Source: Escherichia coli
Lineage (GTDB): Bacteria; Pseudomonadota; Gammaproteobacteria; Enterobacterales; Enterobacteriaceae
Assembly: GCF_003334255.1 (NCBI RefSeq)
Contig: NZ_QOWU01000099.1
Direction: 5' to 3' (one strand)
Length of the DNA stretch: 6,739 nucleotides
Positions 3,096-6,739 of the stretch are shown piece after piece. Position numbers and translations under genes: made by a program. The notes under the pieces were generated by a model that was not told the DNA's origin, did no database searches, and saw only the letters and a program-made list of their open reading frames with translations. Each line of letters opens with the position of its first letter. The first letter of the stretch is position 1.

Positions 3096-3689
3096 TCAAC
3101 CGTTGTGCGGTATGCCAGGAGCAACGTACTGATCCATCAGATCCGTCAGTGCTGCGCTCTGCTTCTGACGGTTGATGATCCATTCCTCCAGCTCTTTTTC
3201 TGATTTCCGTTTCAGATTCTCCGTCCAGTCGTCAAGGCAGTTTCCGGTCATTAAATCAAGCCAGCAAAGCCAGACCAGTTTGAGGCGCAACTCCGTGCCA
3301 CCAAACTGACGGAAGAGGCTAATCAGTTTATTTGCCAGAGAACGCTGCCTCAGACGTTCACATTCAGACAGGAGAATGCCTTCCAGCATCGGATGATGAA
3401 CCAGCAGATGTTCACTGGTGCATAAATTCACGATCAGATCATCATCCAGGGGCGGCGTGGCCCGTTTGTCAGGGCCATAAATCAGCCGGTGCAGGCTCTG
3501 GGGTACGATGGCAATCTCCGGTTTTTCACCATTGAATGACACCCACCCGGGCGTCAGATTATGGAAGTAGTAGATATTCGGATGACACACGCCCCAGGAT
3601 ACGGCGTGCCGGGTGAAGCCGGTCAGCCATTTCTGGTAGCTTTCGTGGAGCAGCTCGTAACGGGTCTGATACTGTGGTTTCATTTTCAT
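3096..3689 (-). CDS. hypothetical protein, 197 aa, unknown function, immediately downstream of alpA
   Basis: Track ORF 3096..3830 (-). The first 47 codons are low-complexity and overlap the alpA 3' end, so I trim to the internal MKMKPQYQ start. GAGGA (reverse complement of 3692-3696) lies 2-3 nt before ATG 3689 and 8-9 nt before ATG 3683, so 3683 is an equally plausible start. The body is protein-like, but I recognise no family or catalytic motif. Confidence 0.7.
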   Translation of the reverse strand: MKMKPQYQTRYELLHESYQKWLTGFTRHAVSWGVCHPNIYYFHNLTPGWVSFNGEKPEIAIVPQSLHRLIYGPDKRATPPLDDDLIVNLCTSEHLLVHHPMLEGILLSECERLRQRSLANKLISLFRQFGGTELRLKLVWLCWLDLMTGNCLDDWTENLKRKSEKELEEWIINRQKQSAALTDLMDQYVAPGIPHNG

Positions 3690-3710
3690 ATTCCTCACGG
3701 GGGATAACAG

Positions 3711-3752
3711 GCAGCAGAACGCCGCCGGCAGGCCGGAGACTGCGTCTGCTGC
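3711..3752 (-). promoter_or_regulatory. GC-rich intergenic hairpin between alpA and the downstream 197-aa gene
   Basis: GCAGCAGA at 3711-3718 pairs with TCTGCTGC at 3745-3752; the stem can extend to about 11 bp with one bulge, and the loop holds a CCGGC/GCCGG sub-palindrome. No U-tract follows on the minus strand, so read-through into the 197-aa gene is likely. Confidence 0.35.
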
Positions 3753-3769
3753 AGATGAACGGTTAAGAA

Positions 3770-3976
3770 TTACGGACGGGACTGTGCAATACGCGCCTGC
3801 AGCCAGGCTTCCACTTCGCTTTTCAGCCATCGGGAGCTGCGGCCCAGCTTGATGGGCGCAGGAAAGTCACCATCCTTGATGAGTTTGTAAAACCACTTAT
3901 CGGTCAGGCCGGTCAGTTGAGTGATAAATGCCATGTCGACCATCTGGTCATCCATCAGTGAAACTGGGGTGATCAT
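3770..3976 (-). CDS. alpA: AlpA-family phage-type transcriptional regulator (excisionase-like DNA-binding protein), 68 aa
   Basis: Track ORF 3770..4048 (-), trimmed to the internal ATG at 3976, which is preceded by GGAGG (reverse complement of 3986-3990) with a 9-nt spacer. The sequence FITQLTGLTDKWFYKLIKDGDFPAPIKLGRSSRWLKSEVEAWLQARI matches the AlpA family pattern (TGL...W.Y.LI..G.FP.PIKLG.R...W...EVE.WL) and the size is typical. Confidence 0.8.
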   Translation of the reverse strand: MITPVSLMDDQMVDMAFITQLTGLTDKWFYKLIKDGDFPAPIKLGRSSRWLKSEVEAWLQARIAQSRP

Positions 3977-4102
3977 GAGAATGTTCCTCCGGATGTTGTT
4001 AAACCAGCCGGTGTGGTCATGAAAACAACGCACCACCTTCACCGGCATAACAACCGGGGAGAAACGTAAAAAATAATCGGGAATGTGACCGCCAGGAGAT
4101 AA

Positions 4103-4120
4103 ACGGGGAGGTTACGGTGG
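4103..4120 (+). repeat. direct repeat copy 1: ACGGGGAGGTTACGGTGG
   Basis: 17 of 18 positions identical to copy 2 at 4248-4265. Flanks show weaker similarity (AGCCGTACC versus AGCCCGTGCC), giving about 35 bp of imperfect repeat. Each copy can form a GGTTACGG / CCGT(A/G)CC stem. Located 130-290 bp upstream of the alpA start, on the promoter side. Confidence 0.8.
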
Positions 4121-4247
4121 CTGAGCCGTACCGGTATGCCGGGTGGTTGTTACGAAACGATGCTTCCGCACGCGCGCGCTATAAAGAAGGGATGATTTTC
4201 GTGAGGAAGAGGGGAAAACTGGCGTTCTGATAATTGCAGAGTTATTT

Positions 4248-4265
4248 ACGGGGCGGTTACGGTGG
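4248..4265 (+). repeat. direct repeat copy 2: ACGGGGCGGTTACGGTGG
   Basis: Second copy of the 18-bp element, 145 bp from copy 1, with a single mismatch (A/C at position 7). Confidence 0.8.
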
Positions 4266-5196
4266 GGCAGCCCGTGCCTTGTGGGCAGGGACAGGTATCA
4301 CTGGTGGGATAAGGCTGTCTGATTGGTATTATAAATATAAGAAGTTATCAGAGAGTAACGTAAAGGATTTGCCAGAATAACCTAAGAGAGTAAATCTCTC
4401 CGGTAACAGAGCGCTGTGAAGCATTCTGTATCAGAGTGCAAATACATGAACGCTGATGCGTAAAATCAGCAGTGACACGCCAGCTCCCCCTGTGCCCATT
4501 CCTGTATAAGACATGAACTGAGCGTATTAATGCTCCTGCCCTGAGACTGAGCCGGTGAGTGAGGGGCTGAGAAATCCCTCTTGACACTGCTCTAAACCAG
4601 AAATACTTCCCCGGTTGTTGCGGTGCGTCCGGATCCCCGATAACGGAACACTAAGGCTGTATTGCGGGACACCAGGTAAGTGGCAGCCCGTAATACGTCA
4701 GGAGACGCGGGAAAAGTGAATTCCCACACGCGTTATAAACTTACCCTAGCGGAGCTGGAAGCCTTTAACTCTGCCGTTGACAACCGGCTGGCAGAACTAA
4801 CCATGAACAAACTTTACGATCGCGTTCCGGCTTCTGTCCGGAAATATGTCACCTGAACGTTCGGTAATCACAGCGGTATTGCGCCAGGTGTTATCTGCTC
4901 TGTGTGATTCTTTTTAGGGTTTCTCAGATTGTTAAAAGCTGAATATGTTCCTGTTGTCGGGAACCAGGATAATACAGGGAACATTAAGCGGTATAGCGAC
5001 AACAAAGCATTCGAAATCAAAAGGGAATGGTGTACGGAGTTGTGGGCAGTAATGGGCCGATTTTCGGGCATTACCGATCTCTGTTGAGGTTTTCTCGTAT
5101 TTGCCGGGGATCCGGTGCGTTACTGTCTGGCACAGCAAACGCAGAGGTGGCGGGGCGCTCTGCTCCGCTGATTCCGGATAATCCCTCCCCTGTAAC

Positions 5197-5394
5197 CTAC
5201 GGCAACAGTACAAATACACTGACGCCTGAAACGACAGCCAGAATCAGCACAGGCAGTAACGTCAGTAGACAAAGCAGACGATCGGTATTCCGGTAATAAT
5301 CGAAGGGATCTGCTGACACGTAGCCCGGGCAACATTCCGTATTATGAGGGATGGCGTTATCACAATCCCTGCACACCGTTTTGCGTATCACCAT
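5197..5394 (-). CDS. candidate small protein, 65 aa, Cys-rich N-terminus and hydrophobic C-terminal segment
   Basis: Track ORF 5197..5397 (-). Minus-strand sequence upstream reads TTGTGAGGAGGACGTG-ATG: a strong AGGAGG core 5 nt before ATG 5394. Product MVIRKTVCRDCDNAIPHNTECCPGYVSADPFDYYRNTDRLLCLLTLLPVLILAVVSGVSVFVLLP has CxxC-x9-CC followed by a ~25-residue hydrophobic stretch. It overlaps other short ORFs in a messy region, so the coding status is uncertain. Confidence 0.3.
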   Translation of the reverse strand: MVIRKTVCRDCDNAIPHNTECCPGYVSADPFDYYRNTDRLLCLLTLLPVLILAVVSGVSVFVLLP

Positions 5395-5488
5395 CACGTC
5401 CTCCTCACAATCTTATCCGTAACCGGCTTTTTGCATTAAAAAAACAACGCTGAAAATTCAGCCGTCAGTCCGGAGACGACAGTCGGGT

Positions 5489-5509
5489 TATCTCAGAGTG
5501 CCTGAGATA
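5489..5509. promoter_or_regulatory. 8-bp inverted repeat TATCTCAG-agtgc-CTGAGATA in the intergenic region upstream of the yagK/yfjJ-like gene
   Basis: 5489-5496 is the exact reverse complement of 5502-5509, with a 5-bp spacer. It sits about 90 bp upstream of ATG 5598 and about 95 bp upstream of the candidate divergent small ORF start at 5394. Short enough to occur by chance; position is what makes it operator-like. Confidence 0.3.
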
Positions 5510-5597
5510 TTGCCTGGTTGGAGATCACTTCAGGGACTCTGCGCATTTTTTACGGCGTGGTTAATCCGTATGAACGAAACCATACGGAGATTTAACC

Positions 5598-6167
5598 ATG
5601 ACCTACAAATGCAACCCCTTCTGGCAGCAACGTATTCGTGAGACGGTGCTGCACGCACTGGATGTTCATCCCCGTCTGACGGCATTGCGGGTTGATCTGC
5701 GTCTCCCGGATGTACCGGCAGCAACGGACGCGGCTGTGATATCCCGCTTCATCAATGCCCTGAAAGCCCGAATCGACGCTTACCAGAAACGTAAGCATCG
5801 GGAAGATAAACGCGTGCATTCCTCGACCCTGCATTACGCCTGGGCCAGGGAGTTCGGGGAGCTTAAAGGCAAAAAACACTATCAACTGCTGCTGCTGGTC
5901 AACCGGGATACCTGGTGTCGTGCAGGCGATTACCGCGCTCCGGGGTCACTGGCCGGGATGATTAAACAGGCCTGGTGCAGTGCCCTGGGGGTGGATGCCG
6001 GATGTTATGCCACGCTGGTGCATTTTCCGGTCAGGCCGGCGGTGTGGCTGGAACGCGATGATGATGCTGGTTTACGGGATATGCTGAAGCGTGCTGACTA
6101 TCTCGCGAAAGAGTACACCAAAGTCAACGGTACCGGTGAGCGCAATTTTGGCTGTAGCCGGAGTTGA
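5598..6167 (+). CDS. YagK/YfjJ-family protein (inovirus Gp2-like), 189 aa
   Basis: ORF 5598..6167 with GGAG at 5586-5589 and an 8-nt spacer to the ATG. Motifs RVDLRLP, VISRFINALKARI, HYAWAREF, HYQLLLLVNRD, LVHFP and the C-terminal NFGCS match what I recall of E. coli YagK/YfjJ proteins. Family call is from memory, not a search. Confidence 0.75.
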   Translation: MTYKCNPFWQQRIRETVLHALDVHPRLTALRVDLRLPDVPAATDAAVISRFINALKARIDAYQKRKHREDKRVHSSTLHYAWAREFGELKGKKHYQLLLLVNRDTWCRAGDYRAPGSLAGMIKQAWCSALGVDAGCYATLVHFPVRPAVWLERDDDAGLRDMLKRADYLAKEYTKVNGTGERNFGCSRS

Positions 6168-6425
6168 ACACGACAGGCGCACCAATACCCGGCAAACCAA
6201 AAGTATGGGTTGTTGTCTGGCGGCAACGATGTATCCACTCGCCCACTGACTGTTTTTTACGTCAGTGTTCCATTGTGTGACAACCACAGTGCTGTAACAG
6301 CAACCAGCCTGCTTTACCCAAACTCCAGTCCAGATTTTAACTGAACCGCCATTCACACCTGACCACACTGCCCGTACCGGGACGGCTGTTGCCTGCGTGT
6401 CGTCTGGCGGCTGAGGAATATGACT

Positions 6426-6739
6426 ATGTACGCTAAATCCTTTCTCGCACTTGATGGCAACGGGCGTCTGACGGGTGCCCGTACCGCACAGACTGCACCT
6501 TACGATCGCTACACTTGCCACCTCTGCGGCAGTGCGCTCAGATACCACCCGCAATACGACACTGAGCGTCCCTGGTTTGAACACACTGACGACGGGCTGA
6601 CAGCGCACGGTCAGCAGTGTCCTTATGTCAGACCGGAACGCAGGGAGGTACGCTTGATTAAGCGTCTGCAGCAATTCGTACCGGATGCCTTACCCGTGGT
6701 GCGTAAAGCCAGCTGGCACTGCAGACAATGTCACCACGA
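6426..6739 (+). CDS. Zn-ribbon protein, 5' part only (truncated by window edge), CoiA-like N-terminal pattern
   Basis: Reading frame open from ATG 6426 to the window end (104 codons, no stop). GAGGA at 6413-6417 gives an 8-nt spacer to ATG 6426; the ATG at 6420 is too close to it. The translation MYAKSFLALDGNGRLTGARTAQTAPYDRYTCHLCGSALRYHP..RPWFEHTDDG...CPYV...WHCRQCHH has CxxC, WFEH and a second CxxC, resembling the CoiA-type N-terminal zinc finger (CxxC ... HFxH ... C). Resemblance is by eye. Confidence 0.6.
   Translation, partial: MYAKSFLALDGNGRLTGARTAQTAPYDRYTCHLCGSALRYHPQYDTERPWFEHTDDGLTAHGQQCPYVRPERREVRLIKRLQQFVPDALPVVRKASWHCRQCHH

Follow-up and report, generated by a model that had tools for sequence, protein, structure and literature searches.

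A probable pseudogene, truncated at its 5' end, of an Hha paralogue carried by a CP4-44-like genomic island of Escherichia coli

In a window of 6,739 nucleotides from Escherichia coli (the whole stretch of DNA analyzed here), a short plus-strand reading frame is open from position 4680 to a TGA at 4854-4856, raising the question of whether it represents a small gene or the 3' end of a disrupted one. A preliminary description, made from the sequence alone, had named both possibilities. It had also placed an AGGAG at 4700-4704, a GTG at 4716-4718, a TTGACA at 4581-4586, and a hairpin (arms at 4866-4872 and 4903-4909) with a TTTTT at 4911-4915, and all of these elements were recovered at those positions. 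The window contains 68 ORFs of at least 30 aa, and therefore an ORF of this size is meaningless by itself. Judged by Pfam and PDB E-values, the resemblance of this ORF to coding-derived DNA is nevertheless far beyond chance. Of the two possibilities the remnant is retained: the frame holds the C-terminal part of a Hha/YmoA-family gene whose 5' end is gone, and it is very probably a 5'-truncated, non-functional pseudogene of an island-borne Hha paralogue of the hha2 type. The coordinates of the features that bear on this reading are collected in Table 1.

Table 1. Features of the Hha-related locus and its neighbors in window coordinates.
Feature	Position	Strand	Remarks
AlpA/excisionase-like HTH	3770..4048	-	RefSeq call covers 207 nt of the ORF; same neighbor in EAEC 042
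Allele block, 361 bp	4340..4700	n/a	Replaces ~400 bp of intact loci
Mechanically called 58-codon ORF, GTG start	4680..4856	+	First 10-12 codons not Hha-derived in this frame
hha2-homologous part	4701..4856	+	From ~codon 19 to the stop (70-aa protein)
1-nt deletion relative to intact alleles	4708..4709	+	GAGACGC-GGG versus GAGACGCTGG
Val25-Thr70 codons	4716-4853	+	Stop codon at 4854-4856
Trp->Arg codon CGG	4839..4841	+	TGG in 14/14 full-length relatives
Imperfect long-loop hairpin and TTTTT	4866..4915	+	7-bp arms, 30-nt spacer, AT-rich; inherited hha2 3' flank
Inovirus Gp2 family (YagK/YfjJ-like)	5598..6167	+	Adjoins hha2 in EAEC 042 too

Family membership was established by profile, structure, and sequence searches. 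The peptide matched the Pfam HHA family (PF05321) with an E-value of 1.4e-16 over model positions 14-56 of 57, and a PDB search aligned the structures of Hha (1jw2, 4icg) and YmoA (2k5s) at residues 26-71 (E ~1e-10). Identity to E. coli Hha over residues 26-71 was approximately 54%. Against the NCBIfam Hha model NF008191 the peptide scored 61.9 bits (profile positions 27-71 of 72); being partial, the match stays under the cutoff of 90 bits. A full-length family member would be expected to have approximately 67-72 aa and to reach this curated family score; the homologous part of the remnant amounts to 46 aa. The homology search that had been proposed for the peptide proved productive, since the protein database contains 70-aa relatives beginning MEVKTKEDWLYQFRRCSSRETLEKVISHTRYKL that are 87-96% identical across the 46 shared residues, alongside many shorter, partial versions. 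An alignment with 14 full-length relatives revealed no N-terminal homology to Hha relatives in the first codons of the ORF.

Intact Hha-family proteins bind H-NS at its N-terminal domain and strengthen DNA bridging and the silencing of genes gained by horizontal transfer (review PMC6936261), and residue D48 of Hha is reported to be essential for H-NS contact (PMC4519777). The remnant resembles helices 2b-4 of the H-NS co-regulators of this Pfam family, namely core Hha (72 aa), YmoA, and YdgT/Cnu, and carries their helix-3 motif with the D48 equivalent. Unlike these proteins, it is partial, falls below the family cutoff, lacks helix 1 and the RRC motif, and is island-borne rather than core. The peptide had been labeled coiled-coil-like; this appearance comes simply from the long helix 3 of the Hha fold.

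The window is up to 99.5% identical to several E. coli chromosomes, and one sister locus (L001) is 95% identical to it over 4000-5600. The genes follow one another in the order YfjI-family gene (+), 200-aa hypothetical (-), AlpA-like HTH gene (-), Hha remnant (+), 66-aa hypothetical (-), inovirus-Gp2/YfjJ-like gene (+), and zinc-ribbon genes; the GTPase gene and Ag43 are close by, in what is a CP4-44-like island. According to the annotation of L001 and of the EAEC 042 locus (L013), this is the position of an hha2-type locus, between a divergent AlpA-like HTH gene and a Gp2-like gene in a CP4-44-like island with the GTPase gene and Ag43. EAEC 042 has the same arrangement, including the AlpA-like HTH gene, hha, and the Gp2-family gene beside a GTPase-Ag43-yeeR-irmA cluster, with an intact 213-nt hha gene (L013 48505-48717) a few genes from an Ag43 copy. 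A few genes separate it from Ag43 copy EC042_4511, and on this positional ground it is presumably hha2 (EC042_4516). In EAEC 042, hha2 near that Ag43 gene encodes one of two island-borne Hha paralogues, the other being Hha3 (Prieto et al. 2016, PMC4864382), and these two paralogues have been linked to the flu-yeeR-irmA cluster (Bernabeu et al. 2019, PMC6480617). The 042 protein and the window peptide are identical at 43 of the 46 shared residues. [quoted passage not shown] Three regions of E. coli K-12 MG1655 were searched with blastn and tblastn, namely the beginning of CP4-44 (yeeH, yoeG, yoeH), the CP4-6 end around yagK, and the beginning of CP4-57 (alpA-yfjI-yfjJ); no Hha remnant was found in them, in agreement with the reported absence of hha2 and hha3 from this strain (PMC4864382).

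Several further observations were made on the surroundings of the remnant. Positions 1-138 match EAEC 042 at 98% identity, over the 5' end and upstream region of its YeeP-like island GTPase gene, and the following ~2.6 kb (139-2758, including the YfjI-family/DUF3987 gene at 1205-2758) have no counterpart in the 042 island, where a different hypothetical gene is found; the island backbone is mosaic. The mechanically called minus-strand ORFs at 3096-3830 (244 aa) and 3770-4048 (92 aa) are longer than the corresponding RefSeq calls (a 200-aa hypothetical and a 68-aa AlpA-like HTH, respectively) and overlap by 61 nt, and therefore their true starts are probably internal. On the plus strand, 4117-4380 has 87% nucleotide identity to the gene of an 88-aa hypothetical protein of other strains (WP_000840364.1), with two consecutive in-frame stops at ~4228-4233 that divide the frame into ORFs of 37 and 48 aa; this region is either another pseudogene or was never a gene. 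An ISEc20 element (IS110 family) is inserted in the AlpA-hha intergenic region of two sister loci (L004 3160-4356 and L010 1380-2576) at a point equivalent to ~4147-4153, and none is present in the window. A conserved 66-aa minus-strand ORF (5197-5397; RefSeq hypothetical WP_000236754.1), with a CxxC...CC pattern followed by a hydrophobic C-terminal tail, is flanked by the Hha remnant and the Gp2-family gene at every locus examined and has no NCBIfam match. The 200-aa minus-strand ORF at 6072-6674 is antisense to a plus-strand 'putative zinc ribbon protein' gene of other strains, which runs from ~6425 beyond the window end, and is probably spurious. NCBIfam scans of the neighboring ORFs, including an antisense ORF at 4348-4587 and the ORF at 4234-4380, yielded nothing useful.

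Comparison with intact loci (L005, L007, and L013 of EAEC 042) by blastn and MAFFT located the lesion. Homology extends over 4000-4339 and is taken up again at 4701, with the intervening block skipped. From 4701 to 4857 the window is 92-94% identical to positions 4057-4214 of L005 and L007, and from 4701 to 5121 it is 89% identical to L013 48561-48978, 3' flank included (blastn). In the intact loci, the ~400 bp that the block replaces comprise the hha2 upstream region, the RBS, the ATG, and the first 56 nt of the CDS. The first ~19-23 codons of the intact gene are gone from the window copy, and an ATG of its own with an RBS and the native upstream region were not found in the window. Global alignment of the block with its intact counterpart gave weak, patchy similarity (z ~2 against shuffles). 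The block was also considered as a merely diverged hha2 upstream region; this was rejected in view of the z-score and the absence of a counterpart for the RBS and 5' coding part. A replacement, or a deletion in a divergent allele, appears to stand on these alignments.

Two smaller changes accompany the loss of the 5' end. Just past the junction a single base has been lost, between 4708 and 4709, and therefore the ancestral frame, which after the deletion reads ..RQETREK* in a three-frame translation (ORF 4615..4719), stops at 4717-4719, and the surviving ORF is entered from a non-ancestral frame. The Trp lost at 4839 is W66 of Hha2 and W68 of Hha; the change is visible in the PDB alignments as well and is also a nucleotide difference from the sister loci L014 and L015. 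Owing to the missing 5' part, the 1-nt deletion, and the Trp->Arg change, the 70-aa protein cannot be encoded.

The distribution of conserved residues follows the same boundary. Among the relatives R14 is invariant and R15, C16, T21, and L22 are at least 90% conserved; all are missing from the window peptide. The near-invariant RRC...TL(E) motif, along with helix 1 and the beginning of helix 2, is absent from the remnant. The helix-3 motif and D46 (Hha2 numbering; equivalent to Hha D48) are invariant in the relatives and kept in the window peptide. Helix boundaries were taken from the AlphaFold model of intact Hha2 (pLDDT 76), in which the helices span residues 6-13, 19-30, 35-60, and 63-66. 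Beginning at residue ~24, the remnant would be left without helix 1 and approximately half of helix 2.

Signals for expression were sought in and around the ORF. A promoter scan returned no plus-strand promoter within 4000-5700, and the TTGACA had correctly been described as lacking a good -10, since the hexamer 17 nt 3' of it is TACTTC, a poor match. The AGGAG and GTG had been offered as start signals, a role that the comparison with intact alleles takes from them: the AGGAG belongs to internal codons (Arg-Glu-Thr) of the ancestral gene and the GTG is its Val25, so that both are ancestral codons rather than dedicated translation signals. We infer that the hha remnant is not expressed, and it most likely has no activity.

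A role of the hairpin and T-run as a terminator found no support; a terminator scan reported nothing on the plus strand near the remnant ORF. The two arms, AATCACA (4866-4872) and TGTGATT (4903-4909), are perfectly complementary to each other. The predicted RNA fold of 4850-4925 has an energy of -17.5 kcal/mol compared with -15.1 +/- 2.4 kcal/mol in shuffles (z=-0.99), and 33 of 200 shuffles were as stable. A 7-bp inverted repeat followed by TTTT occurs once in the window versus 0.43 +/- 0.96 times in shuffles. In both frequency and stability, the hairpin and T-run are thus no better than chance, and the structure, with its AT-rich 7-bp arms and 30-nt spacer, falls short of an intrinsic terminator, which would combine a GC-rich stem, a short loop, a U-tract immediately after it, and a stability above background. 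The arms are kept 3' of intact hha2 in EAEC 042 and also in L002 and L003, with a T-run of only 4 nt there, and are therefore part of the ancestral 3' flank. In L003 one arm carries an uncompensated mismatch, and no covariation was seen. Where the gene is intact, the hairpin may or may not aid termination of hha2 transcripts.

The truncated allele is common. Of 5426 complete E. coli genomes, 1787 (about a third) carry its exact junction (4655-4765) at an identity of at least 95%. The 361-bp block occurs in 2828, and in ~2820 of these the identity reaches 95% or more. For the native upstream region together with the gene, 1893 of the 5426 matched at a coverage of at least 80%, and many genomes carry several paralogous islands. 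The prevalence of the junction is consistent with one ancestral event that would have spread with the island. Among the eight loci compared that carry the 361-bp block, the 58-codon frame is open in five (the window, L001, L014, L015, and L016) and broken in L004, L008, and L010. In L008, which has the block, the coding remnant is only ~75% identical and contains stop codons and deletions of 4 and 7 nt. L004 and L010 are mosaics, with the 5' end of the remnant similar to the window and the 3' end similar to L008, including both the 4-nt and 7-nt deletions.

A further type of lesion was found in L002 and L003, where PGAP annotates a 49-aa 'Hha/YmoA family' CDS (5008-5157 in each). These copies share the locus and the 3' coding part with the window and are likewise inactivated hha2-type copies; their lesion is independent, as the native upstream region and ATG are kept and a 14-bp deletion in codons 7-12 breaks the ATG frame. 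In each, the annotated start codon is CTG, and the gene is listed as though intact. At least three inactive forms therefore exist at this locus: the window type, the 14-bp deletion type, and the old decayed type of L008.

Values of pN/pS between the remnant and intact alleles ranged from 0.14 to 0.23. This low ratio was weighed as a sign that the truncated ORF is under selection, and rejected, because most of the differences also separate intact alleles from one another; only a handful of changes are private to the window allele. The differences are mostly older than the truncation.

A history can be proposed on the basis of the pattern seen in L004, L008, L010, and the window-type copies. The block at 4340-4700 would derive from a pseudogene lineage of this locus that is older and has decayed heavily. 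Through recombination or gene conversion between paralogous CP4-44-like islands, its inactive 5' part would have become linked, close to 4700, to a 3' part that was fresh and resembled intact alleles. The window allele would accordingly be a chimera of an old pseudogene 5' part and an intact-like 3' part. A fresh 3' part would account for a frame that is still open and protein-like, and for a low pN/pS, with no selection on the truncated ORF.

One alternative is that of a real small gene, in which an N-terminally truncated Hha-like protein of 46 or 58 aa, made from GTG 4716 or GTG 4680, would keep a helix-3 contact to H-NS and might work as a modulator, weak or dominant-negative, in analogy to H-NST (see below). 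The open frame in five of the eight block-bearing loci, the junction allele in 1787 genomes, the retained D48-equivalent Asp, and the 58-aa CDS of some RefSeq records (WP_001344112.1) are in its favor, as is the AGGAG 11 nt 5' of GTG 4716. However, that spacing is long and both the SD-like and GTG sequences are ancestral codons, the promoter scan found none, and the invariant Trp is replaced in the window. Loss of helix 1 and half of helix 2 from a compact four-helix protein would also make stable folding doubtful. Furthermore, approximately 11 of 40 sampled genomes match in the manner of the L004 copy with its two frameshifting deletions, and a literature search found no paper on a truncated Hha. 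Overall, a functional small gene is quite improbable, and the truncated pseudogene remains the preferred reading.

A more specific version holds that the truncated allele is kept for a micro-protein of 46-58 aa ('Hha-T'), with helix 3 and the H-NS-contacting Asp and no helix 1, that competes with full-length Hha or YdgT for H-NS. If true, Hha-T would locally relieve silencing of the island, as the Hha counterpart of H-NST, a truncated H-NS derivative from pathogenicity islands (review PMC6936261). The likeness is one of analogy, both being shortened homologues of nucleoid proteins on E. coli genomic islands. H-NST is equipped with expression signals of its own, and its activity against H-NS has been demonstrated, whereas the sequence of the remnant suggests nothing similar, and we regard Hha-T as very unlikely.

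A role as RNA or cis-element, either as a hairpin and T-run terminating upstream transcription or as a small RNA made of the 361-bp block and remnant, is extremely unlikely: hairpin arms and T-run are conserved 3' of intact hha2 in EAEC 042 and other loci and the block is highly identical in the ~2820 genomes, but an island allele of recent spread would be expected to show such identity, the AT-rich stem encloses a loop of 30 nt, the fold is no stabler than shuffles, the terminator scan was silent, the mismatch in L003 is uncompensated, no promoter was found, and Rfam gave no match in the whole window at E<=1.

As a pseudogene, the remnant falls within what is already known, since the literature or RefSeq annotation already covers the gene family, its paralogues on islands, and the status of this sequence as a pseudogene. 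In many RefSeq genomes PGAP labels the locus 'Hha/YmoA family nucleoid-associated regulatory protein; incomplete; missing N-terminus'. The annotation is inconsistent, the same sequence being a pseudogene in some genomes (L001 6313-6456; L014 2654-2797) and a CDS in others, of 58 aa in L015 and L016 (WP_001344112.1, 2526-2702 in each) or of 49 aa elsewhere. The remnant itself carries little biological weight: it adds a further decayed regulator gene to a CP4-44-like island of mosaic make-up. Surveys of hha2 and hha3 as virulence markers (PMC4864382), when performed by PCR or BLAST, are open to confounding because the three inactive forms (5'-replaced, 14-bp deletion, and old decayed) are very common.
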